From the NCBI RefSeq assembly GCF_053078305.1, contig NZ_CP166879.1: DNA of 64,000 bases; one strand, 5' to 3'. The position numbers and the translations under genes are program-made. Shown here piece by piece: positions 1 through 49,525 of the stretch. The notes beneath the pieces were generated by a model. It had not been told where the DNA came from and did not search any database. It saw only the letters and a list, made by a program, of their open reading frames with translations. Position 1 is the stretch's first letter. Each line of letters begins with the position of its first letter.

Positions 1-1
1 A

Positions 2-625
2 TTAATCCAGTTGCGTAATATCAAAAGCGGCGCGGTCGATCACCGCAATGATCTTTTTTATTTGTGCATCAGTGATATCGCTCTGGTTGACGCGTAAATC
101 CAGCACCGCTTTAAAATTATCCAGCGCCCGCTTCATTTGCGGGTTCTGGCGCAGCGCAGCACCAACGCAACGCGCTTTGATGCGTTCTTCAATCATCTCC
201 ACCTGTTCGCGGTTTTCTTCCAGCCACTGCGCGCCTTGTTCGGTCAGCGCAATCTGCTTCTTACCACCTTCCTCTTCGCGGATGGTAATCAGCGACTGCT
301 CCTGCAGAAAATCCAGCGTCGGGTAGATGACGCCCGGGCTTGGGGTGTAATTCCCCTGGGTTAGATTCTCAATCGCTTTAATCAATTCGTAACCGTGGCT
401 GTCATCGCGCGAGAGAATATCCAGAATCACCAGACGCAATTCACCGTGACCAAAGAAACGTTGCCGACGACCGCCGCCGCGACCGTGGCGACCACCGCAA
501 CATTGACCGTGTTCATGCTGGTGACCGTGTCCGCAGTGCTCGTGTTCTGACTTCTCACCTTTGCAGCAGCCCTCATGGCGTGGCTGGCCTTCATGTTTAC
601 AACACCCTTCGTGATGATGGCTCAT
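2..625 (-). CDS. yqjI: PadR-family transcriptional repressor YqjI (His/Cys-rich N-terminus)
   Basis: Complete 207-aa ORF; N-terminal HHHEGCCKHEG...HEH metal-binding-like tract followed by PadR-type winged-helix core; divergent from yqjH as in E. coli. Confidence 0.9.
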   Translation of the reverse strand: MSHHHEGCCKHEGQPRHEGCCKGEKSEHEHCGHGHQHEHGQCCGGRHGRGGGRRQRFFGHGELRLVILDILSRDDSHGYELIKAIENLTQGNYTPSPGVIYPTLDFLQEQSLITIREEEGGKKQIALTEQGAQWLEENREQVEMIEERIKARCVGAALRQNPQMKRALDNFKAVLDLRVNQSDITDAQIKKIIAVIDRAAFDITQLD

Positions 626-645
626 ATCAGCCTCCTTTTGCTTAA

Positions 646-659
646 TTAGATATATCTAA
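646..659. promoter_or_regulatory. Perfect 14-bp palindrome TTAGATATATCTAA, candidate YqjI operator
   Basis: Palindrome read directly; near-copy TTAGATATATCTGA at 876-889 on the other side of the divergent promoter region. Confidence 0.5.
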
Positions 660-725
660 TTTATATCTGATATGAGCGCTCTTGCAAGTGTAAAAATGAT
701 TTTTAAATGTGGACTCATCTCACAC

Positions 726-760
726 GTAGGCCGGATAAGGCGTTCACGCCGCATCCGGCG
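726..760. repeat. REP (repetitive extragenic palindrome) element
   Basis: GCCGGATAAGGCGTTCACGCCGCATCCGGC-type palindromic unit typical of E. coli REP. Confidence 0.7.
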
Positions 761-837
761 TTGAGTAATGATGCCTGAGAAGAGGCGGTTCGTCTTGTCA
801 GACTATAGACATATCAGTTCTACAAATCGCTTGCATT

Positions 838-866
838 TATCATGATTAACAATCATTATCATTTGC
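838..866. promoter_or_regulatory. Fur-box-like site upstream of yqjH
   Basis: TCATGATTAACAATCATTATCATT resembles GATAATGATAATCATTATC consensus; yqjH is known to be iron/Fur regulated. Confidence 0.5.
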
Positions 867-875
867 GAAAATTAT

Positions 876-889
876 TTAGATATATCTGA
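876..889. promoter_or_regulatory. Second copy of palindromic operator (TTAGATATATCTGA)
   Basis: Near-identical to 646-659 palindrome; located just upstream of yqjH start. Confidence 0.45.
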
Positions 890-912
890 TTACCATCACG
901 AAGGCGATAACA

Positions 913-1677
913 ATGAATAACTCCCCCCGCTACCCGCAGCGCGTTCGCAATGATCTGCGCTTCCGTGAACTGACTGTGTTACGCGTTGAGCGCATCAGCG
1001 CCGGTTTTCAGCGCATTGTCCTCGGCGGCGAGGCGCTGGACGGTTTTACATCGCGCGGCTTTGACGATCACAGCAAACTCTTCTTTCCTCAACCTGACGC
1101 TCACTTTGTGCCGCCAACGGTAACGGAAGAGGGCATCGTCTGGCCGGAAGGACCACGCCCACCGTCGCGTGACTATACGCCACTGTATGACGAACTACGC
1201 CATGAACTGGCGATTGATTTCTTTATTCACGAAGACGGCGTCGCCAGTAGCTGGGCAATGCAGGCCCAACCGGGCGATAAACTCACGGTGGCAGGTCCGC
1301 GCGGTTCGCTGGTGGTGCCGGAAGATTACGCGTATCAGCTGTATGTCTGCGATGAATCCGGAATGCCCGCACTGCGCCGCCGCCTGGAAACGTTGAGCAA
1401 ACTTGCCGTTAAACCGCAAGTTAGTGCGCTGGTTAGCGTGCGGGATAACGCCTGTCAGGATTATCTCGCGCACCTTGATGGTTTTAATATCGAATGGCTG
1501 GCACATGATGAGCAGGCGGTAGATGCGCGTCTGGCGCAGATGCAAATCCCTGCCGATGATTACTTCATCTGGATAACCGGCGAAGGTAAAGTCGTTAAGA
1601 ATTTAAGCCGCCGCTTTGAAGCGGAACAGTATGACCCACAGCGGGTACGTGCAGCGGCTTACTGGCACGCAAAGTAA
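913..1677 (+). CDS. yqjH: NADPH-dependent ferric-siderophore reductase (siderophore-interacting protein family)
   Basis: 254-aa ORF, FAD-binding/ferredoxin-reductase-like fold sequence matching E. coli YqjH; followed by hairpin terminator. Confidence 0.9.
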   Translation: MNNSPRYPQRVRNDLRFRELTVLRVERISAGFQRIVLGGEALDGFTSRGFDDHSKLFFPQPDAHFVPPTVTEEGIVWPEGPRPPSRDYTPLYDELRHELAIDFFIHEDGVASSWAMQAQPGDKLTVAGPRGSLVVPEDYAYQLYVCDESGMPALRRRLETLSKLAVKPQVSALVSVRDNACQDYLAHLDGFNIEWLAHDEQAVDARLAQMQIPADDYFIWITGEGKVVKNLSRRFEAEQYDPQRVRAAAYWHAK

Positions 1678-1696
1678 CTGATATATAAAAAGAAAA

Positions 1697-1725
1697 AGGC
1701 TGACGATTTCTCGTCAGCCTTTGCT
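1697..1725 (+). terminator. Rho-independent terminator of yqjH
   Basis: Hairpin AGGCTGACGA-TTTC-TCGTCAGCCT followed by T-rich tract. Confidence 0.6.
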
Positions 1726-1803
1726 ATATCTGGCCCTGCTGTCTTTGAACTGAATGCATATTTTGTTGATAAATAAAGATTATGTGTTTTTGATTTTCGT
1801 TTT

Positions 1804-1827
1804 GTATGCCTTTTTGTATGCCTTTTT
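1804..1827. repeat. Left direct repeat GTATGCCTTTTTGTATGCCTTTTT (putative att)
   Basis: Exact 24-bp copy of 10389-10412. Confidence 0.75.
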
Positions 1828-1985
1828 TGAAAAAGATACCCTTGTTGTTTGATCGTCGATAACGGGTATCAATGTGCACATGCAAATCGATGGCGTTTAT
1901 GTGTGCGCTGTCGAACGTTTGAAAATGGTTTTAGGGCGGTTTTAATGCTGGTTGATGTGGCGCTCTGTGGCGCTCGTTTTGGTGT

Positions 1986-2066
1986 GCTGGTGGCGGGGGT
2001 CGAACCCGCATACATGATCAGCCTGTACAGGCTGGCACCGACTCTACCCGTTGAGCGTACACCAGC
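1986..2066 (-). other. tRNA-like remnant (7-bp acceptor stem GCTGGTG/CACCAGC, canonical T-arm GCGGG-TTCGACC-CCCGC, aberrant anticodon arm, no CCA)
   Basis: Hand-folded from sequence; anticodon region replaced by perfect palindrome CAGCCTGTACAGGCTG. Confidence 0.45.
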
Positions 2067-2090
2067 AAAAAAGCGATGAGGTTGTTGGCT

Positions 2091-2178
2091 GCTGGTGGTG
2101 GGGGTCGAACCCACATAAACATCCCGCTTTCTGGAAGCTATACAAGCGGACGCCGCTTTACCGATTAAGAGTACACCA
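2091..2178 (-). other. Second tRNA-like remnant (T-arm GTGGG-TTCGACC-CCCAC plus CACCAGC 3' acceptor strand; 5' acceptor strand incomplete)
   Basis: Read from sequence; paralogous to 1986-2066 element. Confidence 0.35.
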
Positions 2179-2261
2179 TACAGCCAGGTAAAATAGTAAT
2201 CATGCGTTATGTGCGGGTAAAGTCTGTTTCGTCTGGTAGCACCAGATGAACGGGTATCATT

Positions 2262-2330
2262 ATTTCACCTGATTTCACGTGATTTCGCTTAATTTCACAA
2301 AAATCACCTTCTTTCACCTTCTTTCACAAA
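2262..2330. repeat. Array of six TTTCAC(C) direct repeats (iteron-like, crr-like)
   Basis: TTTCAC at 2264, 2274, 2294, 2313, 2323 plus degenerate copies; resembles P4 type I iteron TGTTCACC. Confidence 0.5.
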
Positions 2331-2461
2331 AAACAAATCATCATTAAAGCGCCTGATTCGCTCTCTGATGCGTTTTGGTGTTTTTGTGGCGTCCGTGATG
2401 CCCTGAAAGGGGATTTTTGCGATAGCGGCGCAAATATAACGGTTGCTGCTGGTATCTGTGG

Positions 2462-2869
2462 TTAGTCTTGCGTGATTTTATTGGCGTGCTTCTTTCTCAG
2501 TCGTCGTATGATGTCGTAAATATGGGTTTCGGATATTGCGTACTCTTTGCGTAATGCCTGCAATTTTTCGCCGTTATCCCACCTGTAGTAAATCTCGTAT
2601 TCGCGCAATGCTGCGAAAAGTGATCTGCCTGTTGGAAGGTAAAGACTTCGCCCACCAGCATAGAAGGCGATTGCAGCGACAACCCGCTTTGCGATTCTGA
2701 AAGCGTCTGCCTCCTCCATGCCATTACGGGTAAGTTCCGCTACTGAATGCGACACGATATCAGCAAGCGAATCACACCATGCATCACCTGGTTTATCTCC
2801 GTTGTCTATGGCGTCGATGAATTTAAGCCGCTCGATGTCTTTTGGTACGTGATGGGTTTGCTCGTTCAT
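2462..2869 (-). CDS. Mor-family-like transcriptional activator
   Basis: 135-aa ORF; C-terminal ...LYLPTGRSL...ISETHIYDIIRR pattern resembles Mor/C-type HTH domain. Confidence 0.55.
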   Translation of the reverse strand: MNEQTHHVPKDIERLKFIDAIDNGDKPGDAWCDSLADIVSHSVAELTRNGMEEADAFRIAKRVVAAIAFYAGGRSLYLPTGRSLFAALREYEIYYRWDNGEKLQALRKEYAISETHIYDIIRRLRKKHANKITQD

Positions 2870-2982
2870 CCGGTAGCCTCTTGCGTTGGTGTATCTGGTC
2901 CTACCAGTTTAATTTAACGTCGCAATAAAACGATATACACGCACACAATCAGAAAAGCCGTCTGACTGTTCCGGTCCCGTGC

Positions 2983-3255
2983 TTACTTCTGGTAGCTACG
3001 CCAGATTTTTTTACATCTCCCTCCTATCCCCATTTCTGCGTAAGTGCGGTTTACTGCTTTCCTCAGGTCTGCGTAGTTCTCCTCTGGCGGCTCCGGTGGC
3101 CTCTGTGCCTTCCCGTAACATTCTGCCCTGCGCATTGCCACCCGTTCGCGTTCCCTGTCAGTCTCCACCAGCATCATCACTTCAGCCCATCGCGCCGCCG
3201 CTCTCCGGTAAAAGCCCTTCGCCTCCAGCTCTTCCGCTATGCTGTCATGTACCAT
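2983..3255 (-). CDS. PerC-family transcriptional regulator-like protein
   Basis: 90-aa ORF with AEELEAKGFYRRAAARWAEVM motif typical of PerC/Pch proteins of prophage-like elements. Confidence 0.6.
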   Translation of the reverse strand: MVHDSIAEELEAKGFYRRAAARWAEVMMLVETDRERERVAMRRAECYGKAQRPPEPPEENYADLRKAVNRTYAEMGIGGRCKKIWRSYQK

Positions 3256-3265
3256 CGTTCACCCC

Positions 3266-3676
3266 TCAGAACGGAATATTGTCACCGTAAGGGTCATCGC
3301 CTCCCACTGGTGGCTGATTACCCTGTGTGCCTGTGGTCCTGCGTCTGTTGCCACCTGGTCGCGCCGTTTTCGCACTGATTACGCTGTCTGCAATGACCTG
3401 ATAACCCTGCCGCGTTTCCCCGTTCTGTCCGGTCCACTGACTGACCTGCATCACACCGGATACGCTGATTACGTTGCCTTTCTCATGTCCTGCCAGTTGG
3501 TCGGCCTGTTTGCCAAATGCCAGGACAGACAGCCATAACGTTGCCTGCCCGTCCTGCGCCTGACTGCATGGCAGCGATACCGCCATACGTGCCAGCGTCA
3601 TCGGTGTGCCCTTACTGGTCTGTTTTGTCTGCGGGTCGTCAATCAGTCGCCCGTAAGCTGCTATCTGCGCTGTCAT
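3266..3676 (-). CDS. Single-stranded DNA-binding protein-like (OB-fold, acidic ...DDPYGDNIPF tail)
   Basis: 136-aa ORF; glycine-rich linker and C-terminal acidic tip ending IPF as in SSB. Confidence 0.55.
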   Translation of the reverse strand: MTAQIAAYGRLIDDPQTKQTSKGTPMTLARMAVSLPCSQAQDGQATLWLSVLAFGKQADQLAGHEKGNVISVSGVMQVSQWTGQNGETRQGYQVIADSVISAKTARPGGNRRRTTGTQGNQPPVGGDDPYGDNIPF

Positions 3677-3777
3677 GATTCCACCTCTCCGGTTTTAACG
3701 TTGATGGTTGTTACCTGTTCCGCTTCTGCAATCTCCCGCTCTGTCAGCGTGGTAAAGTTTGCCGCTGCTGTGCTCAT
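3673..3777 (-). CDS. Small ORF (34 aa, MSTAAANFTTLTEREIAEAEQVTTINVKTGEVES) translationally coupled to ssb-like gene (ATGA overlap)
   Basis: Hand-translated; not in ORF track because below length cutoff. Confidence 0.3.
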   Translation of the reverse strand: MSTAAANFTTLTEREIAEAEQVTTINVKTGEVES

Positions 3778-3915
3778 GAATGCACTTATCAGCCAGGGGG
3801 CTTTCGCGTGTCTTTCTGCCGTGTTGTGGCCCTTCGTTCATGAGCAAAACACTTAAATAAAACTAAAGTGATTTTCTGTGTTTTCGTGCTGCTCTGCTCT
3901 GTGTTTTTTTGCCGT

Positions 3916-4130
3916 TTACTCACCACTACTCACTTTTTTTACTCACTTTTTGGAATCGCTCACTTCGTCTCACCTGAGATTTTTGGTGTTTTTATGTGTG
4001 TGTTTTATAAGTGGTTTTTTACTACTCACTTTTTTGCCTATATACAGGTGAGAAAGTGAGTAATTTTGTTAATTTTTTGTAAAATTACTCACTTTACTCA
4101 CTTTTGCTCCTCACTTTTTTACAGCGGTAC
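3916..4130. repeat. Iteron array: at least 8 copies of ACTCACTTT (one inverted), AT-rich; candidate replication origin
   Basis: Repeats read directly (e.g. TACTCACCACTACTCACTTTTTTTACTCACTTTTT; AAAGTGAGTA inverted copy); immediately 3' of replication helicase gene. Confidence 0.6.
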
Positions 4131-5516
4131 TACGTCATCGCCGTCAATGCGTATAGTCTCGTCTTTCTCCAGTTTTGCTAACCATCGCCGCATGTTTTTC
4201 ACGTCATACCCAAGCCGTTTCATGTCGTCGCGCAACAACGAAATAGTGCACTTGTCGCCGTGCTGTGTGCGTGACCGGATGCAGCCCCATAGCGCGGTAT
4301 GGTTTTCCGTCTTGTTGCCAGCCTCCTCGATGCGCTCCACTTCAACGGGATGACGCGGCTTATCCACCACAACCAGAGACGTGATTAACTCCCCGTCAGC
4401 GTCGGTAAAAAGCTCAACTACCCGCAAATCGTAGGCAGCTTCTTTGAGTTCCTCTGCGTCCTTCATTTTGGTACATGAGATAACCAGCGCTTCGCTTCCT
4501 GCGTCCTCCCTGCGTATCCGGTATTCAGCATCCAGTGATGCACGAAATGCACTGGAACCACGCGCCCCCTTTGTTTCATCCTTGCCGGAATGGTGAACCA
4601 CCAGCACCGTTGCCCCTGTGCGCCGTTTCAGTTCGTCACACCCACGGATAAACGCCCCCATATCACGGGAATCATTTTCATCATTGCCACCAAAGCAACG
4701 CGCCAGCGTATCCAGAATAATCATGCGTACAGGTTTACCCGTTTCCCGTTCCACCTGGCGGGCAGCGATAACCATTTCATCAACATCAAGCGGGGCAGCC
4801 GGAAAGATGGGGCGGTTTACCAGATACAGATTTTTCACCTGCTCACCGTGCACAACCTCCCAGGCTTTTACACGACGCGGAACGCCGATACCGCCTTCAC
4901 CAACCACATAGAGAACAGCGCCATGCGCCACCCTGCGGCCTCCCCACTGGCGGCCCGTGGAAACGTGACACGCCCACGAACCCGCAAGGAACGATTTATA
5001 GGAACCGCTCGCCCCGTATATGCTGCACAGCGATACCGCCGGAATAATCCCCTTAACCACGTAATCCAGTTGCGTGTCATATCCGGCAGAACCAACGCTC
5101 ATCGGTAGCTTTGTTTTGCGCTGGTGGCCTTTTTCTTCCTGCTTTTCCCCGCGCTCCCGTTCCAGATATTCGCGCCAGTTCTCCCGCTTCTGGCTGTGCA
5201 TCCCATCGGGGTAGTAATTCGCATCCTGTACGCCTGCCGCTGCCAGTTTTTGCGCGATGGCATTAATATTTGATGGTCTGATATGGCTTGCTTTGTACAG
5301 CCGGACGCAATAGCGCCCCTCGTCAATGATTTTCGTGTCTGCCAGTTCTGCCAGTTGCTGCTCCCCAAGCCATACAGGTGGCACATTATCGCCAGCAAGT
5401 CGGCCCTCCTGCTCCTGCCACTGCTTCGCGTGTGCCCAGGCATCACTACCCACAAAAATAATGACCTCGGTCATTTTGTCGTAAGGCTGTTTTTTTAAGT
5501 TCGGTGCGCTTTTCAT
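4119..5516 (-). CDS. Replication initiator/helicase (RecA-fold, AAA_25/RepA-like; P4 alpha-like role)
   Basis: 465-aa ORF; Walker A GASGSYKS, Walker B MIILDTLARCF...; C-terminal putative DNA-binding region; adjacent iterons. Confidence 0.8.
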   Translation of the reverse strand: MKSAPNLKKQPYDKMTEVIIFVGSDAWAHAKQWQEQEGRLAGDNVPPVWLGEQQLAELADTKIIDEGRYCVRLYKASHIRPSNINAIAQKLAAAGVQDANYYPDGMHSQKRENWREYLERERGEKQEEKGHQRKTKLPMSVGSAGYDTQLDYVVKGIIPAVSLCSIYGASGSYKSFLAGSWACHVSTGRQWGGRRVAHGAVLYVVGEGGIGVPRRVKAWEVVHGEQVKNLYLVNRPIFPAAPLDVDEMVIAARQVERETGKPVRMIILDTLARCFGGNDENDSRDMGAFIRGCDELKRRTGATVLVVHHSGKDETKGARGSSAFRASLDAEYRIRREDAGSEALVISCTKMKDAEELKEAAYDLRVVELFTDADGELITSLVVVDKPRHPVEVERIEEAGNKTENHTALWGCIRSRTQHGDKCTISLLRDDMKRLGYDVKNMRRWLAKLEKDETIRIDGDDVVPL

Positions 5517-5812
5517 TTCTTACCCCTGAATGCGTTAATCATCTTTTTCATCTTCTGTATTTTTGCCAGTGCCTTTACGTTGCTGGTGGGCACGTTACGC
5601 GGTACCGCCTGCACCAGAGAAAAATCACGGGAAAACTGATAAACAGGCATCACGCAGTCATATTCGTAGCCTTTACGGCGGTAGGTGACGCACCGCCCCG
5701 CCACGCCCTTAATCATTACCGTGCCGCCGTACTGGTCGCGGTAAATATCACCGCGCTTAAATTCAGGGCGAGGCTTGCCGCTGGCAGTTAAGCCAGTTTT
5801 TTTCATGTTCAT
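5513..5812 (-). CDS. Hypothetical small basic protein
   Basis: 99-aa ORF, stop overlaps helicase start (ATGA); no family recognised with confidence. Confidence 0.45.
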   Translation of the reverse strand: MNMKKTGLTASGKPRPEFKRGDIYRDQYGGTVMIKGVAGRCVTYRRKGYEYDCVMPVYQFSRDFSLVQAVPRNVPTSNVKALAKIQKMKKMINAFRGKK

Positions 5813-5885
5813 TTTTTTATCCTTTGTTCTGGTCAGTTACGCCGTTGCTGCATAAATGCGGTTAGCGGTGCCTGTCGTTGCCTTA

Positions 5886-6200
5886 TCACGAATGGCGATA
5901 ATCAGCACTGATATCTCCGTTACGACAACGCCAGTTGTACACCTCCACAACCTCACTGAATCCGGCCACAAGTTCAGCCGTAACAGCGATGGAATCGCCC
6001 AGGCTGCGCAGTTCGTCCATGTCAGGATCAATGCTGTCACTCATGCCAGAAAGTAAGCGCCCTGTGATAGCCAGCCCTTCAAGCAGTTTGCGGGCGTAGA
6101 AATCAGCATCATCAAACATCGCTCTCGCTTCCCGTGCGTCAGCTGCTTTTATGGTTGTAACCAGTTGTTCAAGTATTCTGGTGTTACACACATCACGCAT
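5886..6200 (-). CDS. Hypothetical protein
   Basis: 104-aa ORF in co-oriented gene train; no recognisable motifs. Confidence 0.45.
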   Translation of the reverse strand: MRDVCNTRILEQLVTTIKAADAREARAMFDDADFYARKLLEGLAITGRLLSGMSDSIDPDMDELRSLGDSIAVTAELVAGFSEVVEVYNWRCRNGDISADYRHS

Positions 6201-6363
6201 GACTCACCCCCTCACGAATAAGGGTGACAAAAATCAGATGGGTGTGCGGAAGTTGTGCGCGTGCTTCGTGCTCAGTGGCAGCGGTAACGGTGAATATTGC
6301 AATGCTGCCTGTCAGGCACTGCATAAAGCGCCAGACAAAGTAAGGGCGTGCGGATACAGCCAT
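6193..6363 (-). CDS. Icd-like small protein, copy C (56 aa; MAVSARPYFVWRFMQC...)
   Basis: Internal Met of ORF 6193..6687 preceded by strong SD (AGGAG, ~8-nt spacer); conserved C-terminal block shared by three tandem copies. Confidence 0.5.
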   Translation of the reverse strand: MAVSARPYFVWRFMQCLTGSIAIFTVTAATEHEARAQLPHTHLIFVTLIREGVSHA

Positions 6364-6649
6364 GTGAAAGGCTCCTATGTTTGAGGTAAGGAGTCTCGCT
6401 ACTACGCTGCTAAACATGGTGGCGAGACGTAACAGGGTTAGCAGACTGGCAACATAGAAACCAGCGAGCGCAAAGGCTCCCCCGTTACGCCCCGCCATAA
6501 TGCGGGTATGGGTAGGTTTACGGACACAAAAAAACCGCATATCGGAATGTAAGCGGCTGTCCGCTATGTTATTCAGGCTGCTAAACCCGGTCGCCATGTG
6601 GGTGACTCCGGCATCATACAGCCCGAAAGAAGAGGCGATCAACATGTTT

Positions 6650-6820
6650 TTATCCATGTGATGCCTCCTGACGGATACGGGCGACAAAAATCAGATGTGC
6701 GTGCGGCAGCCGGGCGCGTGCTTCGTGCTCAGTGGCAGCGGTAACGGTGAATACATCGATGTTACTGTGGTGGCACTGCATAAAGCGCCAGACAAAGTAA
6801 GGGCGTGCGAATACAGCCAT
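6650..6820 (-). CDS. Icd-like small protein, copy B (56 aa; MAVFARPYFVWRFMQC...)
   Basis: As copy C; SD AGGAG upstream of internal ATG at 6820. Confidence 0.5.
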   Translation of the reverse strand: MAVFARPYFVWRFMQCHHSNIDVFTVTAATEHEARARLPHAHLIFVARIRQEASHG

Positions 6821-7106
6821 GTGAAAGGCTCCTGTAGTGAAATTAAGGAGTCTCGCTACTACGCTGTCAAACATGGTGGCGAGACGTAACAGGGTTGACA
6901 GACTGGCACTACAGGAACCAGCGAGCGCAAAGGCTCCCCCGTTACGCCCCGCCATAATGCGGGTATGGGTAGGCTTACGGACACAAAAAAACCGCATATC
7001 GGAATGTAAGCGGCTGTCCGCTGTAGTATTCAGGCTGTCAAACCCGGTCGCCATGTGGACGACTCCGGCATCATACAGCCCGAAAGAAGAGGCGATCAAC
7101 ATGTTT

Positions 7107-7295
7107 TTAAGCATGACTCACCCCCTGACGAATACGGGCGGCGAATACAGCGACACAACCGGACGGGCAACGGTTACGCGCTTCGCGTTCCGTCCAGGCG
7201 GTTACGTGGATGATTTGACGTTCTGACGTGCCAAAGGTGATAAAGCGCCAGATAAAGGCGGTTTGAGAATGTACGAGGGCAGGGGTAGTAGCCAT
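7107..7295 (-). CDS. Icd-like small protein, diverged copy A (62 aa; MATTPALVHSQTAFIWRF...)
   Basis: SD AGGAGG upstream of ATG at 7295; C-terminus ...TEREARNRCPSG...ARIRQGVSHA homologous to copies B/C. Confidence 0.45.
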   Translation of the reverse strand: MATTPALVHSQTAFIWRFITFGTSERQIIHVTAWTEREARNRCPSGCVAVFAARIRQGVSHA

Positions 7296-7825
7296 GATGG
7301 CAGCCTCCTTTATCGTTGGGATATACCCACCGCTGGAGGTTCCAATCTCGCTGGCGGTGGACTGCACGGAGTTGGAACTACTGGCGATAAAGGAAACCAG
7401 CCTGACCGAAGTCAGCCCCATACAGCCCACCATTGATAAGGTGTGCGTGTGCGCCGATACAAAAAAAGACGCGTTCGGCGTCTGTATCGCCTTTATCTCC
7501 AGCGGGGTTCCAATCCCGACACCCGTTTTATGAGGTGCGCGGGAATCATAGCCATTTTTGATACTGGCGATCAACTGATTTTCTCTGGCGGGTATTTGGC
7601 GCGGATGCCTGTTACCTGTGGCAATATACACACGACTGTATACAATACACATCGGTTAACTCCTTATATTCCGTTGATGGCCCGTAGTGTTATTGCATTG
7701 CGGGTATTTTTTACCTGCCGTTAATTGAATGCGGCAAGGCATCACGACGGTTAACCCGTTTTGCATAACGTGAGGCGTTTTATTTTCTGCGCTGGTGGCT
7801 TTTATATTTCACATATGGGAATTTA

Positions 7826-8029
7826 TTATTCCTGCTGATAACGCTCCTCTACTTTCTTCTCAAGCCATGATTTCACCTCATCCTCAAACCAGCCAACGCG
7901 GCGTAATCCACGCTTAAAACCAGGAATAAATTCACCAGCCTTAACCATTGTGTCAATGCTCGTTGTACTAAGGCGAAGAAGATTTGCGACTTCTCGTTTT
8001 GTAAGGATTTTCTTTTCTGTAATGTTCAT
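7826..8029 (-). CDS. alpA: AlpA-family phage transcriptional regulator (HTH)
   Basis: 67-aa ORF, LTKREVANLLRLSTTSIDTMVKAGEFIP HTH typical of AlpA/prophage CP4-57 regulator family. Confidence 0.8.
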   Translation of the reverse strand: MNITEKKILTKREVANLLRLSTTSIDTMVKAGEFIPGFKRGLRRVGWFEDEVKSWLEKKVEERYQQE

Positions 8030-8121
8030 ACTTTGCGTTCCTTTTGTTTCAGGCGCTAACTTGCCTAAACTTGTTCAAGGATATGCAAACACGGTAAAAG
8101 CTGGCATTGCGGAATATTACG

Positions 8122-8145
8122 AAAAAAGCCCGTAATATTACGGGC
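8122..8145 (-). terminator. Rho-independent terminator after int-cargo unit
   Basis: Hairpin GCCCGTAATATTACGGGC followed on minus strand by U6. Confidence 0.65.
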
Positions 8146-8166
8146 GGTCATATGTTCAGAAGTCTG

Positions 8167-9063
8167 TCAGTCGTCAACGTCTGCAAGCCACTTACCTATG
8201 CATGTTGGTGTGGCACCGATATCAACGCCTGCTTTGGTTAGTGCGCGGCTTAACTTGCTGTGACCGTTTTCAAGCGCCCTTCGTGGGTTTGACGCCTCTT
8301 CTTCTCCGGCTATAGCGGTGATTAGTCTTTTGATAACTCTGGCCTGAAGATTGGTTGTTTTCTTTGATGGGGGTGGTTTATTGATGTTTAATTCATCCAT
8401 GTTTTCAATAGAAGCGGTACGCCCTCCGTTTATGGCTAAATCTATCTCACTTCTGGAAATAAAAATATCGTTACGTGATATATCCCATCCCTGTAATAAA
8501 ATCGCAGCTTTAAAATCATCCTCGTCATCGTTATCGATTATCTGAATGTATTTAGTATTTGTTGTATCGTGAAATGATAATCTTTCAATGTCTGCGCTGT
8601 TAGCCTTTACATTAAGCAATCCATCAGCTTTAACATATATTTCTTTTGCGGGTGTTATTATTTGTGCGTTTTTTATCTCTGGCTCATCTTCAGCAAAAAT
8701 ATTCATGCTGAAATAATCACCATATGATGAGTAATGATAGTTTATGTTGAGTCCTGCATGTGCATAATAAAAAACATCTATTGGAGTGAGTAGCTTATTT
8801 ATAGATGTGGCATCAATGATTACATTGCAATATTCATTTGTGTAATGCTGGTATAATGTTTTATTAGCACTGATAAGCTCAGGCTTTACCCCTTCATAAT
8901 ACTTTAATGTCAGTTTTTCATTTATATTAATGCGATACAAAAAACGCATCCTCCTCGTAGCGATGAAATGAAGCAAATCATCAACGTCACACTCAAGCCT
9001 TCTGGCTGCCTTGTCTAACGGGTAATAATCCCTTTCAGGAAGGTTTATTTTTTTGTTTGCCAT
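8167..9063 (-). CDS. Hypothetical protein, low-GC cargo (possible N-terminal excisionase-like HTH); function unknown
   Basis: 298-aa ORF 4 bp downstream of integrase stop; markedly AT-rich (about one third GC by eye) versus flanking genes; N/I/D-rich; followed by terminator. Confidence 0.6.
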   Translation of the reverse strand: MANKKINLPERDYYPLDKAARRLECDVDDLLHFIATRRMRFLYRININEKLTLKYYEGVKPELISANKTLYQHYTNEYCNVIIDATSINKLLTPIDVFYYAHAGLNINYHYSSYGDYFSMNIFAEDEPEIKNAQIITPAKEIYVKADGLLNVKANSADIERLSFHDTTNTKYIQIIDNDDEDDFKAAILLQGWDISRNDIFISRSEIDLAINGGRTASIENMDELNINKPPPSKKTTNLQARVIKRLITAIAGEEEASNPRRALENGHSKLSRALTKAGVDIGATPTCIGKWLADVDD

Positions 9064-9067
9064 GCCC

Positions 9068-10348
9068 TTAACCGTTAACCATTTTTAACCCACGATAGCC
9101 ACCCGTGGCGCTTACGCTCCCGCTGGCAGCTGCCTCTACAAAATCCCCCCACCACGCCATTAACGGGCGTCGCTGCTCGAGATAGGTTGAGCGGTTGTAC
9201 GCACGGCGAACCTCGTTTTTATCTATGTGTGACAATGCCGCCTCGATTACGTCAGAGTCAAAACCTTGCTCGTTAAGTGCGGTACTTGCTATTGAGCGCA
9301 AGCCATGAGCAACCAGCCGCCCACTAAAACCCATGCGTTTTATTGCTGCGTTTGCTGTTTGTACGCACATATGGCGCTGCGGGTCGCTGTTGTGTGGAAA
9401 TATAAACTCACGATGCCCGCTTATTGGCTTCATGACGTCCAGAATGGCTAACGCCTGCTTCGAGAGTGGTATTACGTGTTCCCTGCGTTGTTTAAGTCTG
9501 TGCTCTGGTATGCGCCATTCCTTCACCTCAAAATCAATTTCACACCAGCGCGCGCCAGCTGCTTCACCTGGTCGGCAAATTGTCAGTAGCTGCCACTCAA
9601 TGACCAGCCGCGTTTGTCGTTCCACCCGTGCCGTTGCCAGCTTCTGCATAAATTCGGGGAGTTCTTCAGGGCGTATTGCTGGCATGTTCTTAACGCTTGG
9701 CGCGTTAAATGCCTTGCTTATCTCTGATGCCGGATTCGCGGCAATCATTCCGGTATTAACGGCGTAATACATGACCTCATTGATTCGCTGTGCTGTCCTT
9801 CTGACGGTATCTAATTTCCCCTGGGCGGCTAATGGTTTTAATGCTTCGATGAAATTGCTTGCTATCAGGTCTGCTATTGGCCTGTTACCGACTGACGGGA
9901 ATACATTACGCTCCAGCGAACGCCATATATCGCGTAGTGTATCTTCTGCGAGTCCTTGCCCTTTTTTAAGTTCAAACCAGAGCGTAGCTACATGCCTGAA
10001 GGTGTTCTCTCTCTTCATCACTTCACTAAGGCGCTGTTTCTCTCTGTGCTCTTTTGGGTCAATGCCACCAGAAAGAAGCGCTCTGTATTCGTCTTTTATC
10101 TTTCGCGCGCCCGCAATGCTGATTTCTGGATATGCGCCAATGCTTAACATGGCCCGTTTTTTTGTGTGTGGCTTGTAGTAGCGGTAACGCCACAAGCAAG
10201 AGGCGCTTTTGTGCTTAATCACCAGTTCCAGCCCTTCGCCGTCAGTGATGAAAAGGTCCTTTTTTTCGTTGCTGGCTTTTCGCTGGAGGCTTTTTATCGT
10301 TGCGGGTGATAAAGACTTAACTTTTTTGGTCACCGGTTCAACTCCCAT
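9068..10348 (-). CDS. int: Tyrosine site-specific integrase, P4-type
   Basis: 426-aa ORF; catalytic tail ...AHGLRSIASTAL...RAYNRSTY; adjacent to tRNA and att repeat. Confidence 0.9.
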   Translation of the reverse strand: MGVEPVTKKVKSLSPATIKSLQRKASNEKKDLFITDGEGLELVIKHKSASCLWRYRYYKPHTKKRAMLSIGAYPEISIAGARKIKDEYRALLSGGIDPKEHREKQRLSEVMKRENTFRHVATLWFELKKGQGLAEDTLRDIWRSLERNVFPSVGNRPIADLIASNFIEALKPLAAQGKLDTVRRTAQRINEVMYYAVNTGMIAANPASEISKAFNAPSVKNMPAIRPEELPEFMQKLATARVERQTRLVIEWQLLTICRPGEAAGARWCEIDFEVKEWRIPEHRLKQRREHVIPLSKQALAILDVMKPISGHREFIFPHNSDPQRHMCVQTANAAIKRMGFSGRLVAHGLRSIASTALNEQGFDSDVIEAALSHIDKNEVRRAYNRSTYLEQRRPLMAWWGDFVEAAASGSVSATGGYRGLKMVNG

Positions 10349-10388
10349 AAGCTGTTAAAGGCATATGCAAATCTGTGTTTTTTCCGGC

Positions 10389-10412
10389 GTATGCCTTTTT
10401 GTATGCCTTTTT
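10389..10412. repeat. Right direct repeat GTATGCCTTTTTGTATGCCTTTTT (putative att)
   Basis: Exact 24-bp copy of 1804-1827, 41 bp upstream of int start. Confidence 0.75.
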
Positions 10413-10454
10413 AATCTTGCTTATACGCTATCAAACTGGCCCAAACTGAACAAT

Positions 10455-10484
10455 AAAAAACCCGCGTTCCTTGTCTGGCGCGGG
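10455..10484 (-). terminator. Rho-independent terminator of ileX
   Basis: Hairpin CCCGCG...CGCGGG followed by U6 on minus strand, ~50 bp 3' of tRNA. Confidence 0.7.
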
Positions 10485-10531
10485 TTTGCTTTGTTTAACT
10501 TGCCGTAACTTGTCTTTACTTGGTGTCGATT

Positions 10532-10607
10532 TGGTGGCCCCTGCTGGACTTGAACCAGCGACCAAGCGATTATGAGTCGCCTGCTCTAACCACTGAGCTA
10601 AGGGGCC
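10532..10607 (-). tRNA. ileX: tRNA-Ile2 (anticodon CAU, lysidine-modified), 76 nt with encoded CCA
   Basis: Reverse complement reads GGCCCCTTAGCTCAGTGGTTAGAGCAGGCGACTCATAATCGCTTGGTCGCTGGTTCAAGTCCAGCAGGGGCCACCA; cloverleaf and CAT anticodon. Confidence 0.9.
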
Positions 10608-30886: not shown

Positions 30887-30965
30887 CCGGAAAGCGGTTC
30901 ACAGATCTCGCTTCGTACATGGCAGGCCTATTGACGCTGTTGTTTTTTCAACCTAGAGTAAAGGA

Positions 30966-31108
30966 ACAAGGGTAAGGGAGGATTTCTCCCCCCTCTGATG
31001 AGTTGTTAGTAAGTCGGGAAACTTAACAGTAACAACACAACCAGTATGATGACGAGCTTCATCATAACCCTTTCCTTCTATAAGGCCCCTTCCTCGGGAG
31101 GGGCTTTC
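30966..31108 (+). ncRNA. sibD: Sib-type antisense sRNA (antitoxin of ibsD); coordinates approximate
   Basis: Sigma70-like promoter TTGACG-17-TAGAGT at 30931-30959; transcript covers ibsD antisense; terminator hairpin GGCCCCTTCCTCGGGAGGGGC near 31083-31103. Confidence 0.6.
31006..31065 (-). CDS. ibsD: Type I toxin Ibs, 19 aa (MMKLVIILVVLLLLSFPTY)
   Basis: Hand-translated from reverse complement; hydrophobic 19-mer identical in form to E. coli Ibs toxins; missed by ORF track. Confidence 0.8.
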   Translation of the reverse strand: MMKLVIILVVLLLLSFPTY

Positions 31109-31341
31109 CCGTTTCAGCCCCTTGCTGACTCCCCGATTGTTGATGAGCGCCGGACCCCGCGCAACGCTTTCCCTGAAGCAGTTTTGCCTTCCCCGAGCGG
31201 TCACGCAAAACGCTGCAACGTCCTGAGCATTTGCACCTTTTAGCGGAACGCAGATATAAAAAATCCCCGGCTTTTTGGGCCAGGGATATGCGTTAATGAA
31301 ACCTTCTTGACGCTGATTTTTTTTCAACCTAAAGTAAAGGA

Positions 31342-31483
31342 ACAAGGGTGAGGGAGGATTTCTCCCCCTCTGATTGGCTGTTAATAAGCTGCGAAACTTA
31401 CGAGTAACAACACAATCAGTATGATGACGAGCTTCATCATAACCCTTTCCTTATACAAGGCCCCTTCTTCGGGAGGGGCTTTC
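31342..31483 (+). ncRNA. sibE: Sib-type antisense sRNA, second tandem copy; coordinates approximate
   Basis: Promoter TTGACG-17-TAAAGT at 31307-31335; tandem ~375-bp duplicate of sibD unit. Confidence 0.6.
31381..31440 (-). CDS. ibsE: Type I toxin Ibs, 19 aa (MMKLVIILIVLLLVSFAAY)
   Basis: Hand-translated; second copy in tandem repeat. Confidence 0.8.
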   Translation of the reverse strand: MMKLVIILIVLLLVSFAAY

Positions 31484-31678
31484 CCGTTTCAGCCCCTTGC
31501 TGACTTCCCGATTGTTGATGAGTGCCGGATCCCGCGCAATGCTTTCCCTGTGGCAGTTTTGCCTTCCCCGAGCGGTCACGCAAAACGCTGCAACGTCCTG
31601 AGCATTTGCACCTTTTAGCGGAACGCAGATATAAAAAATCCCCGGCTTTTTGGGCCAGGGATGTTCATAGCTGAAAAT

Positions 31679-46200: not shown

Positions 46201-48342
46201 TCAAAATTCCATTTTCACCGTGAATTGCACTTCACGCGGATCGCCAATCTGATTCCCCAGATTATTTGTGGCGATGGAAGAGGTGTAATACGTTTTATCA
46301 AACAGGTTTTTGACGTTTAATTGCAGTGTGACCGGATACTGCAATTTCATTTTGTATGCGGCGAAGGCATCGGCAACGAAATAGCCTGGCAGATAATAGT
46401 CAGCCCCATTGGTTGCCGAACGACGGCTTACGCCATGTCCACCACCGCCAAACGTCAGTGTGTTATTGCCAGGCATGTTATGAATGTCATAGGTCAGGAA
46501 TAGCGAACCGGTATGACGAGGAACATTCGGCAATGGTTTCCCTGCATAATCAGGATCTTCCAGAACCTTAGCATCGGTATAGCCGTAGCTGGCAATGATA
46601 TTAATGTTTTCAGTTAATGCTCCCGCAAGGTCGACTTCTACCCCTCTTGAACGAACGCGGCCTGCCGTTTTGGCGATGGTTTCATCACCAATACTTTCGG
46701 TATACAACACGTTACGTTTATGGATATCAAACAGCGCAATATCTGCGGTTATACCATCGAACAGCTCGAATTTTGCCCCGACTTCGTAAGCATTAGATGA
46801 TTCCGGTGGAAGATCTCCGATGTAGCTGGCAATTGACGATTGCGGCATAAATGTTTGCGAATAATTAGCAAATAAGGATACCGATGGCGTCAGTTTGTAG
46901 ACTAACCCCAGTTTGGGCGTCCATTGTTCATCGCGGCTGTCAGTATTGACATTAAAAGGACGGCCTTTACCCGCATACTGCGTGTAATACTGATAGCGGA
47001 TCCCGGCGACGGCAATCCAGTTATCGGTCAGATAGAGCGCATCCTGTGCATAAGCTGAGTAGCTCTCCTGTTTGATCGTCTGATCACTGTCCGACGCCGA
47101 AACCGTTGTGCATTTGCTGGTATTGCCATAAACGGGGTTGTAGATATTGAAATCTTTAGCGTTTTTACAGCGAATCATATCTGTGCGCAGAAGATCATAA
47201 TATTCATATGACACCCCACCCAGAATCTCATTATAGAACCCAGCAATATCAACATTCCCTTGCAGATCCGCACGAGTAGAATGCATACGCTGGGTAGATC
47301 CCTGAGTTGCATCAACACGCCGTGTCAGCGTTCCTGTCGTTGCATCATACGCGGTAACGCGAGCCTGATTGTCGCTGTATTTATCCTGGCTGTAGCTGTA
47401 ATCAAAGCGCGCTGTCCACTGGCTATTGAGATGATATTCTGCGTTGAGTTGCGCCAGATCGGACTGACCATCTGTAATATTAAACGGTTCGTCAAAACGT
47501 ATTTTTCGATCAACGTTTACGGGCTGTTTCGTCGTAAGGTCGAAAATCGTTCCACGATCGAACGGAGTTTTATAGTCCCGATGGGAATAGAGCATGGTTA
47601 CTGTTGCATTATCACCAAACCAGGTGAGTGACGGGGCAATAAATGTACTGCGCTCTTTACCGAAGTTTCGCCAGTAATCTTCATCCTGCACTTCCCCCGT
47701 CAGGCGGTATGCCAGCTGAGTGCCTTCAATGGGACCTGTGATATCAAGTTGCCCAGTGCCTCCGCCAAAACTGGAGGACGTGGCTGAGACAGAACCATGG
47801 AATGTTTTTTCCGGGCGCTTGGTCACGACGTTAATCAATCCACCAGGATCGAGAATGCCATACAGCGTGGAGGCCGGACCTTTTAGCACTTCCACACGTT
47901 CTGTGGCGGCGTTGAAACTGCGAGGAAGTACAGTTCGCAGGCCGTTGGTCATGATGGAGCCATCCCGGTTAGCACCAAACCCACGACGTACAAAGGCGTC
48001 CTGAGTTCCGCCTAATGTATTGGTCTGTACCACGTTACTGACGTTATAAAGCGCTTCATCCAGCGTCGTTGCATTCTGATTTTCCAGAACCTGATCGCTA
48101 ACCGTATTGACCACCTGCGGGATATCCAGCATCGGCATATCGGTTAATGTCGCCGTGGAAGTGCTCAGAGGTTGATAACCATCGGTCGCCTCAGTTGCGG
48201 TATTTGCATCCGCTGTAACAGTGATTGTTTCGCCATCTTTGGTCGTTGCAGTGTCGGTTGCATGAATCATTGGTGCTGCAAAGAGCAGTGAAAAGAGCGC
48301 CCGACCTTTGATTCCTGAGAATGAAGGTGTGAACTTAGCCAT
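46201..48342 (-). CDS. TonB-dependent outer-membrane siderophore receptor (Fit-like)
   Basis: 713-aa ORF; signal peptide, TonB box (ETITVTA), C-terminal ...FTVKMEF beta-barrel terminus. Confidence 0.85.
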   Translation of the reverse strand: MAKFTPSFSGIKGRALFSLLFAAPMIHATDTATTKDGETITVTADANTATEATDGYQPLSTSTATLTDMPMLDIPQVVNTVSDQVLENQNATTLDEALYNVSNVVQTNTLGGTQDAFVRRGFGANRDGSIMTNGLRTVLPRSFNAATERVEVLKGPASTLYGILDPGGLINVVTKRPEKTFHGSVSATSSSFGGGTGQLDITGPIEGTQLAYRLTGEVQDEDYWRNFGKERSTFIAPSLTWFGDNATVTMLYSHRDYKTPFDRGTIFDLTTKQPVNVDRKIRFDEPFNITDGQSDLAQLNAEYHLNSQWTARFDYSYSQDKYSDNQARVTAYDATTGTLTRRVDATQGSTQRMHSTRADLQGNVDIAGFYNEILGGVSYEYYDLLRTDMIRCKNAKDFNIYNPVYGNTSKCTTVSASDSDQTIKQESYSAYAQDALYLTDNWIAVAGIRYQYYTQYAGKGRPFNVNTDSRDEQWTPKLGLVYKLTPSVSLFANYSQTFMPQSSIASYIGDLPPESSNAYEVGAKFELFDGITADIALFDIHKRNVLYTESIGDETIAKTAGRVRSRGVEVDLAGALTENINIIASYGYTDAKVLEDPDYAGKPLPNVPRHTGSLFLTYDIHNMPGNNTLTFGGGGHGVSRRSATNGADYYLPGYFVADAFAAYKMKLQYPVTLQLNVKNLFDKTYYTSSIATNNLGNQIGDPREVQFTVKMEF

Positions 48343-48441
48343 TTAGTCTGTTATCCCAAAAACTCACGGATTGTCGTGAGTGAAAATTGTTTCTTGTTGC
48401 TCACTAAGCACTATCCGTTTGTTATTTCACCATCGGATATG

Positions 48442-48460
48442 TAATTGAGAATCATTCAAC
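48442..48460. promoter_or_regulatory. Fur-box-like site in divergent promoter region
   Basis: TAATTGAGAATCATTCAAC resembles Fur consensus (one or two mismatches in core). Confidence 0.4.
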
Positions 48461-48715
48461 CATGCGGTAATGTAGTAGTAAATGAGAAATAACAAAAAAT
48501 TGCTACATGTGTTTTTTTGAGAGGTTAATGCAATTCAATTGATGGTAATTTATTAATATTTAATGATTTTATTTTTATCTTTAAAAATATTTCACCTGTT
48601 ATTTACCTTGTTTTTGTATGGCTTTTAACTTCTTGACTACTACATTTTGTGGCGTCAAACTCTCAAAAGAGAATGAGTTTTATTTTTGTTTGTCTTTGAT
48701 TAAGTTGGCGTACAC

Positions 48716-49525
48716 GTGGCACATAACGCAAAAGGGCAGGGGCTGATCCTCGACAATGTTTCTGCCGGGTATCACAAGAAAATCATTGTTGATGGTGTTT
48801 CTTTCTCCGTTCCCACAGAAAAAATGACCGTTCTGGTTGGGGCAAACGGCTGTGGAAAGTCGACGTTGCTCAGCACCATTGCACGTATCTTGCAACCCAT
48901 GGGCGGCTCAATATTGCTGGATGGTAAAGCGATTCACGAGCAACCAACGAAAGCGTTATCCCGTAGACTTGGGATCTTGCCGCAGTCGCCATTATTGCCG
49001 GAGGGCTTAACCGTTTATGAACTGGTGTCGCGTGGGCGTTTTCCCTGGCAAAATTTCATACGTCAATGGAGCGACGCCGACGAGCAGGCGGTAGAAGAGG
49101 CCCTGAAATTAACCGGTACGCAGGAGTTTGCTCATTTACCTGTTGAAAAACTCTCTGGTGGGCAGCGCCAGCGTTGCTGGATTGCGATGGTGTTGGCGCA
49201 AAAGACGCCTTATATCCTACTGGATGAACCCACAACCTGGCTTGATTTACGTTATCAGGTTGAAATTCTTGAGTTATTACATGATTTAACGCGTCATCAC
49301 GGGCGTACAGTCGTCGTGGTGTTGCATGATCTGAATTTTGCCGTCAATTATGGTGATACGTTGATATTTTTACGCCAGGGGAAAGTGGTGCGTGTGTTGA
49401 ATGAGGGGGAGCATTGCACGCCTGAGCTGGTAAAAGCTGTCTTTGACGTTGATGTTCACGCATCAATAAATACTCTGACGGGAAAGCCGTTCTTCATGCC
49501 GTTTCGTGGTGTAGAAAAAGTATGA
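48716..49525 (+). CDS. ABC transporter ATP-binding protein (iron-siderophore type)
   Basis: 269-aa ORF; Walker A GANGCGKST, signature LSGGQRQR, Walker B ILLDEP. Confidence 0.85.
   Translation: MAHNAKGQGLILDNVSAGYHKKIIVDGVSFSVPTEKMTVLVGANGCGKSTLLSTIARILQPMGGSILLDGKAIHEQPTKALSRRLGILPQSPLLPEGLTVYELVSRGRFPWQNFIRQWSDADEQAVEEALKLTGTQEFAHLPVEKLSGGQRQRCWIAMVLAQKTPYILLDEPTTWLDLRYQVEILELLHDLTRHHGRTVVVVLHDLNFAVNYGDTLIFLRQGKVVRVLNEGEHCTPELVKAVFDVDVHASINTLTGKPFFMPFRGVEKV

Follow-up and report, generated by a model that had tools for sequence, protein, structure and literature searches.

The fitA-fitB intergenic region of Escherichia coli as a bidirectional control region with candidate Fur and FitR sites

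The intergenic gap between fitA and fitB is the promoter fragment of the fit locus, in which fitA is divergent from fitBCDE-fitR. It lies at positions 48343-48715 of the window, which is the whole stretch of DNA that was analysed (64,000 nucleotides of contig NZ_CP166879.1). The function of this region as a two-way promoter repressed by Fur and FitR is already known from the literature. We believe, with a probability of roughly 85%, that the gap is a bidirectional fit control region in which two promoter modules are repressed by Fur and FitR through the candidate sites described below. The comparison of related sequences gives a base-level map of candidate Fur and FitR sites and thus addresses a question left by the 2008 paper on this promoter, namely at which bases the two repressors act and if there is an interaction between them. 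New here are a second, stronger Fur-like site (site B), a predicted paired promoter architecture and RpiR-type half-sites as probable FitR operators. An apparently portable cassette that also occurs with a paralogous receptor, a spacer whose length seems to be quantised and a putatively structured leader are also new.

Identity and published regulation of the gap

The preliminary description of this DNA reported an AT-rich gap of about 370 bp between divergent receptor and ABC genes, and the gap measured 373 bp with 30% G+C. The G+C content was about 25% at 48500-48700 and about 50% in the flanks. On one side of the gap lies a minus-strand ORF of 713 aa (46201-48342). Its ATG (48340-48342, minus strand) is identical to the RefSeq CDS start of fitA and is aligned in all orthologues. 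On the other side, a plus-strand ORF of 269 aa begins with GTG at 48716-48718. This GTG is the first start of the ORF and the RefSeq start of fitB in four genomes, and its counterpart in the alignment is GTG for the Enterobacter clade but ATG for the other genera; the GTG start first suggested for the ABC ATPase therefore agrees with RefSeq. The products are annotated as a TonB-dependent siderophore receptor (fitA) and an ABC transporter ATP-binding protein (fitB), with both starts in agreement with the ORFs. In RefSeq, the genes between parE and ygiN encode the receptor, the ABC ATPase, two permeases of the FecCD type, a protein that binds siderophores and a regulator of the MurR/RpiR type. 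The ORF list also has seven entries of 21-71 aa in the gap. Six of them (at most 42 aa) were dismissed, as they lie within non-conserved or regulatory sequence, and the seventh, of 71 aa, is mostly inside fitB on the opposite strand.

The cluster had been called Fit-like; exact matches to published primers identified it as the fit system itself. One published fit promoter primer matched exactly at 48699-48722. The other promoter primer mapped to 48364-48385 with 2 mismatches here and matched exactly in the ST131-type allele. The published qPCR primers for fitA, fitB, fitD and fitR were exact matches, and the fitC and fitE primers, like this second (reverse) promoter primer, had 1-2 mismatches. 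Because the published primers map onto the gap, the gap is the published fit promoter fragment, and the experimental fragment corresponds to window positions 48364-48722. The 7.5 kb around the gap were 100% identical to E. coli chromosomes. Of 5426 complete E. coli genomes, 1870 have the gap, with identities of 93.7-100%; O157:H7 and ST131 are among them. The fit locus is thus an accessory iron-uptake system in about one third of E. coli genomes, and the practical value of the map is modest. Ouyang and Isaacson reportedly published an earlier fit paper in Infection and Immunity in 2006.

In their later work, the same authors described fitA, fitB-E and fitR (Ouyang and Isaacson, Open Microbiol J 2008, PMC2593036). 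The fit promoter of that study is the same DNA, with the same gene order, divergent promoters and repression by Fur and FitR. Their strain i484 carries a B2/ST131-type allele, which is about 94% identical to the window in the gap. The lacZ fusions were active in both directions from the fit fragment, and the iron chelator dipyridyl gave approximately 3-fold induction in both directions. In a fur mutant, fitA was increased 23-fold. FitR repressed the fit fragment, and purified FitR bound the 359-bp fragment in a gel shift. The effects in a fur and fitR double mutant were additive, and repression by Fur and by FitR was independent (PMC2593036). An absence of iron or Fur regulation at the divergent promoters, which would have spoken against the preliminary description, is contradicted by these fusions and the fur mutant. 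Direct Fur repression of fit was cited as unpublished work, and the authors did not pinpoint where in the fragment Fur and FitR bind; our literature search found no later paper mapping the fit Fur or FitR sites. According to the same authors, most E. coli iron transporters, with the exception of fec, have no regulator of their own (PMC2593036).

Conserved blocks, Fur-like sites and predicted promoter modules

A scan for FitA relatives gave 39 loci, all with the same divergent layout. They belong to about ten genera (Escherichia, Enterobacter, Lelliottia, Citrobacter, Kosakonia, Kluyvera, Yokenella, Erwinia, Pantoea and Affinibrenneria), and their 39 orthologous gaps were aligned, 40 with the window. 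The exact block A was then searched in metagenomes, which gave 120 further loci and 130 distinct gap variants. In all, about 160 related sequences were compared. The alignment showed four conserved blocks, and the two sequence features singled out in the preliminary description are two of them. Block A (TGTAATTGAGAATCATTCAA, 48440-48459) had a mean identity of 99.3% in the 40 gaps; it begins with a TGTAAT half-site, includes the predicted fitA -10 and contains the Fur register 48441-48459. Block A2 (ATGTAGTAGTAAATG, 48470-48484) was 98.7% identical, with the invariant TGTAGTAGTAAATG at 48471-48484. Block B1 (TTGACTACTACAT, 48633-48645, plus strand) was 96.9% identical, with 12 of 13 columns at 100%, and TTGACTACTACA covers its positions 48633-48644. 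Block B2 (48666-48690) was near-invariant, with 91% identity. The identity was 44.5% in the central spacer (48485-48632), approximately 45-64% in the spacer next to block A, 52.5% in the fitA leader (48343-48439) and 64-76% in the first codons of fitA and fitB.

Consensus counting was dropped as a test for Fur sites. In its best register, 48441-48459, the sequence agreed with the 19-bp Fur consensus in 12 of 19 bases, a level that some 100 other places in the 64-kb window also attain. As this was uninformative, a 19-bp matrix was built from the 12 DNase-footprinted K-12 regions listed by Chen et al. 2007 (PMC2189734). The footprinted sites had leave-one-out scores of 8.0-21.1 bits (median 16.9), and the ryhB promoter, outside the training set of the matrix, scored 19.1 bits. 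Dinucleotide-preserving shuffles of the gap served as the background for the scores. The top match in the window (17.2 bits) was at position 848. Direct alignment of window positions 1-1733 placed it within the nfeR-nfeF gap and ruled out a location inside ebgA. nfeF (yqjH) is a Fur target, and this match and the ryhB score, taken as controls of the matrix, came out as they should.

The best Fur candidate in the gap is site B (GAGAATGAGTTTTATTTTT, 48669-48687), which lies over the predicted fitB transcription start. It scored 15.8 bits, ranked 2 of about 64,000 window positions and was reached by 0.85% of the shuffles. The block A register at 48441-48459 scored 10.1 bits, ranked 13 in the window and was reached by 20% of the shuffles. 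Both scores are within the range of the footprinted sites, and site B alone is significant against the shuffles. Of the 24 window sites with 8 bits or more, 4 lie in the gap, and nowhere else in the window are such sites so closely grouped. The other two are weak sites in the spacer, at 48524-48542 (10.1 bits) and 48559-48577 (8.4 bits). Four sites of at least 8.4 bits occurred in only 0.05% of the shuffles. The block A site is not significant alone; the gap as a whole is.

A Fur-box matrix scan had been proposed as a check in the preliminary description, and two of the sites that it found in the gap, site B (15.8 bits) and the block A register (10.1 bits), each recur at the same place in 38 of 39 orthologues. 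At site B the sequence drifted and the score stayed at 9.8-18.1 bits, as would be expected for the evolution of a Fur site. No conserved third Fur site was found in the spacer, where a score of at least 10 bits was reached in only about 20% of the variants. The sequence TAATTGAGAATCATTCAAC, which had been likened to the Fur consensus, is indeed present at 48442-48460. By sequence alone this likeness is no more than chance, given 12 of 19 matches and a score reached by 20% of the shuffles, but it gained support from conservation and from the cluster of sites. We infer that both fit sites are putative Fur binding sites.

The predicted fitA promoter occupies 48454-48482 on the minus strand. It consists of a -35 hexamer TTTACT (48482-48477), a 17-nt spacer, a TG at 48462-48461 and a -10 hexamer TTGAAT (48459-48454) that is without the usual A at position 2; its start, as read from the sequence, would be near 48447. 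On the plus strand, TTGACT at 48633-48638 is present within block B1, as first noted, and is invariant, and its role as the fitB -35 is predicted. The predicted fitB -10 CAAACT (48656-48661) follows 17 nt after it, with a predicted start near 48668. In the alignment, CAAACT, CATGAT, CAAAAT, CAAGAT and CATTAT occur at the same offset, that is, CAnnnT in all genera. The hexamers of the fitA module and CATG are invariant. The fitB side reads TTGACT-ACTACAT-N10-CAAACT and the fitA side reads TTTACT-ACTACAT-N10-TTGAAT, the latter -10 being preceded by TG. A GAGAAT box follows each module. These features suggest two back-to-back promoter modules of like geometry.

A consensus scan for sigma-70 promoters, with at least 9 of 12 matches and a spacing of 16-18 nt, called neither module because each has only 8 of 12 matches. 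The only promoter match of the scan was on the minus strand at 48595-48566, within non-conserved sequence. Even so, both hexamer pairs are conserved and their spacing is fixed, which supports the predicted modules. The Fur-like boxes overlap the -10 and the start of these promoters, which were predicted from conservation and not called by the consensus scan. Site B, FitR with its probable operators, the fitA-side module and the putatively structured fitA leader are all outside the preliminary description.

The E. coli enterobactin promoters fepA-fes, fepB-entC and fepD-entS likewise serve divergent iron-uptake operons and have Fur boxes over promoter elements; their footprinted sites are among those from which the matrix was made. 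Compared with these, the fit gap is longer, and its two modules, some 190 bp from each other, have one Fur-like box apiece. The fit locus also has a further repressor that is specific to it. In the mechanism that we propose, each -35 would be directly followed by ACTACAT, then by the rest of the 17-nt spacer and then by a weak -10. Fur would bind a GAGAAT-type box at or just past each -10, strongly at site B and more weakly at block A, and its occupancy at high iron would block RNA polymerase at both promoters. FitR would recognise TGTAGT/ACTACA over both -35 hexamers, together with GCTACA 25 nt away and possibly TGTAAT of block A. Since the candidate FitR half-sites overlap both -35 hexamers, one repressor would control both promoters. 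FitR may also bridge the two modules across the AT-rich spacer.

Candidate FitR operators, the cassette and the spacer

FitR contains HTH_6 and SIS domains and therefore belongs to the RpiR family. RccR and HexR of Pseudomonas have the same domains (PMC5489143). The half-sites of RccR from P. fluorescens, set by ChIP-seq, SPR and footprinting, are TGTAGT and ACTACA, which form pseudo-palindromes with linkers of 3 or 16 nt (PMC5489143). The half-site hexamers at fit are identical to them. TGTAGT (48471-48476), in block A2, is a candidate FitR operator arm that overlaps the fitA -35. The ACTACT/ACTACA half-sites (48636-48645, plus strand, with ACTACA at 48640-48645) overlap the fitB -35 and form the second candidate operator. 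The two elements belong to an inverted repeat, AATGTAGTAGTAAA / TTGACTACTACATT, which adjoins both -35 hexamers and in which block A2 and 48633-48646 are 93% complementary.

A further half-site, GCTACA (48502-48507), lies 25 nt after TGTAGT, giving TGTAGT-N25-RCTACA, and is invariant in the E. coli alleles. The offset of RCTACA from TGTAGT was exactly 25 nt in 83 of the 130 distinct variants; the same held for 21 of 23 type-2 loci, a second group of loci described below. TGTAGT was found 31 bp after the TGTAAT of block A in every one of the 130 variants, which is the same spacing as that from TGTAGT to RCTACA (31 bp).

The fit arrangement is not that of RccR. Its linkers measure 25 nt (fitA side) and 163 nt (from one module to the other), not 3 or 16 nt. 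On the fitB side the half-site is solitary: a search for a TGTAGT partner 31 bp upstream of this ACTACA found none. FitR is a distant relative, with an identity of just 24% to E. coli HexR. The half-site match was noticed after the fact, with a rough chance estimate of about 2%. In the search for FitR homologues, the relatives listed all had at least 69% identity. RccR and HexR are sensors of KDPG that regulate carbon metabolism (PMC5489143); FitR, by contrast, controls iron uptake.

The same elements occur in a second gene context. In 20 distinct type-2 loci, an identical block A, TGTAGTAGTAAA and RCTACA lie upstream of another TonB receptor, which is only 37% identical to FitA. This receptor is divergent from a FitR homologue that is 67% identical to FitR and whose own promoter reads TTkACTACAT. 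Since the type-2 loci pair the cassette with a FitR homologue and a different receptor, the cassette follows the regulator family and not the receptor. The presence of the same non-coding cassette with FitR-like regulators beside a different receptor points to a small regulon family. The cassette, TGTAAT-N25-TGTAGT-N25-RCTACA with ACTACA over the partner promoter, may be an ultraconserved and portable unit. It may serve at least two unrelated TonB-dependent receptor systems and bridge divergent promoters 16-18 helical turns apart. TGTAGT and ACTACA were assigned to FitR because they are the half-sites of RccR and overlap both predicted -35 hexamers, and because the cassette travels with the regulator family. 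We consider it probable that these elements are the FitR operators.

As the cassette follows the regulator family, FitR may recognise block A, either together with Fur or in its place. It is possible, if somewhat unlikely, that block A serves chiefly as an operator for the FitR family and as a promoter element, and that Fur acts through site B and the weak spacer sites. With 99.3% identity, block A hardly varies, while site B drifts like usual transcription-factor sites, and the total invariance of block A fits a protein more specific than Fur. Its TGTAAT lies exactly 31 bp before TGTAGT, the spacing between TGTAGT and RCTACA, the identical 20-mer travels with a FitR homologue beside an otherwise dissimilar receptor, and its Fur score is marginal. 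However, that score lies within the footprinted range, and the core of block A, AATCATTC, is common to the 19.1-bit ryhB promoter site. [quoted passage not shown] The Fur and FitR readings of block A are compatible in any case. We therefore keep Fur at block A and at site B as the preferred reading.

A rather unlikely alternative is that the ACTACTACA elements are extended promoter elements or the target of another factor, with FitR binding elsewhere in the fragment. They abut the -35 hexamers at both promoters, they are not palindromic alone, and the copy on the fitB side is without a partner; the FitR site within the fragment is unmapped in the literature (PMC2593036). On the other side, exactly two ACTACTACA elements were found per locus in the 39 loci, and none elsewhere in the 301 kb of DNA that flanks them. 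Sigma-70 spacers are normally free of sequence constraint, unlike the spacer portion covered by ACTACTACA. The half-sites are, moreover, identical to those of a characterised RpiR-family member, paired with RCTACA at a fixed offset, and found with FitR homologues in two gene contexts. These points argue for FitR as the protein that would bind the elements.

The AT-rich central spacer (48485-48632) contains the weak, non-conserved Fur-like sites; its sequence drifts and its length falls into discrete classes. Between the repeat elements, at 48480-48635, the G+C content is 22%. From TGTAGT to ACTACA, the Escherichia/Enterobacter clade had distances of 167-169 bp and the other genera 189-191 bp. 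When the metagenome loci were included, the length classes were 160, 168-169, 179-181 and 190-191 bp, with no intermediates; over both sets they come to 160, 167-169, 179-181 and 189-191 bp. One type-2 locus was off-phase in distance. The length steps of about one helical turn are suggestive of modules kept on the same face of the DNA, as in repressor bridging. The rough p value for phasing is about 0.05, with few independent classes and with kinship ignored, and the length classes could reflect clade history instead of helical phasing.

At nagE-nagBACD, NagC reportedly forms a repressor loop between operators that overlap both divergent promoters, and helical phasing is said to be needed. A phasing requirement as for NagC would explain the length classes of about 10 bp at fit. 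In comparison with NagC, looping at fit is suggested by spacer length alone, and the distance, 160-191 bp, is longer. An IHF-like reading of the semi-conserved TTAAyTTATTGAAAATAA was set aside, because AT-rich DNA fits this consensus too easily.

It is very unlikely that the AT-richness mainly marks horizontally acquired, H-NS-silenced DNA and that the Fur-like matches are a by-product of composition: no more than 1870 of 5426 complete genomes carry the locus, the spacer has 22-25% G+C and a high A+T content raises Fur scores (10.1 bits were reached by 20% of the shuffles), but site B beats 99% of composition-matched shuffles, both sites are fixed in position across genera, Fur and iron regulation are published (PMC2593036), and H-NS binding would add to Fur and FitR control and not replace it.

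The fitA leader

The predicted fitA leader is about 105 nt long, on the minus strand, and had a minimum free energy z score of -2.8. Hairpin 1 (48412-48439, minus strand) has an outer stem of UAUCCG and CGGAUA, and RNAalifold recovered this stem. In the alignment, 86.9% of the cells were paired, against 22-40% in slid controls. All 9 of 9 pairs were changed on both sides, and none of 500 shuffles reached the observed covariation score. Downstream lies a single-stranded leader box (48393-48402, minus strand), which is GGGCAAUGA in most genera and GAGCAACAAG here; its G, A and A are invariant and its C, T and A nearly invariant (alignment A1).

The leader box has an 8-nt complementarity to the RyhB seed, and in 30 of 33 leaders the best duplex with RyhB involved the box. 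The pairing was rejected, since the duplex energies were no better than those of shuffles (mean z -0.27, none with p < 0.05). No real Rfam match for the leader was found; the only hit, to a plant microRNA model, was due to chance, with 23 bits against a gathering score of 65. Candidate roles of the leader are mRNA stabilisation, attenuation and a small RNA derived from it; as an attenuator or as such a small RNA it could be new. A joint reading, in which a portable FitR-family and Fur cassette bridges the promoters and the leader acts as an attenuator or small RNA, is tentative, and we regard it as doubtful as a whole. If it is true, iron-chelate uptake would be tied to a phosphosugar-type signal.

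Hairpin 2 (48362-48381, minus strand), which resembles a terminator, is formed by ACUCACG and CGUGAGU with a 6-nt loop. The consensus promoter and terminator scan, which called neither promoter module, did not call this hairpin either. It is followed by a U-run (48358-48362) and a conserved UUUYGGGA, about 15 nt before the AUG. Nearly all of the 33 orthologous leaders fold into a hairpin here, although their stem sequences are unrelated. In the ST131 allele, hairpin 2 carries a double compensatory change, CTCGCG/CGCGAG.

Leader and translation start of the divergent fit genes

The 5' leader of fitA (48343-48447, minus strand) contains two conserved hairpins on either side of a conserved box, which lies at 48393-48402 on the same strand. 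The hairpin at 48412-48439 (minus strand) showed strong covariation, and the other, at 48362-48381 (minus strand), was conserved and followed by a U-run. The search of Rfam gave no match for the leader at 48343-48447 on the minus strand. Possible roles of this leader are attenuation, stabilisation or the supply of a leader-derived small RNA. On the other side of the intergenic region, fitB of the Escherichia/Enterobacter clade has a GTG start and a weak ribosome-binding site, TTGGCG (48691-48718), whereas fitB in other genera has AGGAG and an ATG start. A G+C-rich insertion of 20-60 nt is present in the 5' UTR of fitB in these other genera.

Variation of the fit locus

Compared with loci L049 and L050, the E. 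coli fitA-fitB intergenic region (48343-48715) exists as two alleles approximately 6% apart, the B2/ST131 type and the type shared by the window and O157. The differences were concentrated in the central spacer, and all conserved blocks were spared. As an impression, a distance of approximately 6% seems high for divergence within a species. In one fit locus (L053:5007-8004), three additional genes, encoding one PepSY_TM protein and two PBP_like_2 proteins, were located between fitE and fitR; the record is labelled Pseudomonas cerasi, and its gene context is Serratia-like.

The same cassette in a paralogous receptor system

The identical 20-bp block A and the candidate FitR half-sites TGTAGT-N25-RCTACA were present in a paralogous system, found at L065:4560-10132 and in approximately 20 further loci from metagenomes, such as L062, L067, L076 and L092. 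Its TonB receptor is only 37% identical to FitA and is accompanied by a periplasmic binding protein. A FitR homologue (67% identical) is divergent from the receptor and binding protein genes, and is followed by a GDSL-esterase autotransporter.

Fur-matrix match and other elements of the window

The best Fur-matrix match in the window (842-866, 17.2 bits, AACAATCATTATCATTTGC) is located between nfeR (yqjI) and nfeF (yqjH), at a distance of 47 bp upstream from nfeF, and served as a positive control for the matrix. Relative to strain TUM13936, the window carries an 8.8-kb insertion (1734-10528) adjoining a tRNA with anticodon CAT (10532-10607). Among the products of the insertion are a tyrosine integrase, SSB, an AAA_25 protein and members of the Ash and Mor (activator) families, and the insertion resembles an integrative element or satellite of the P4 type. 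A tandem pair of approximately 357-bp copies (30931-31662) also became visible, as cross-matches, when the window was aligned to TUM13936; the copies are 92-93% identical and contain the type I toxin genes ibsE and ibs.
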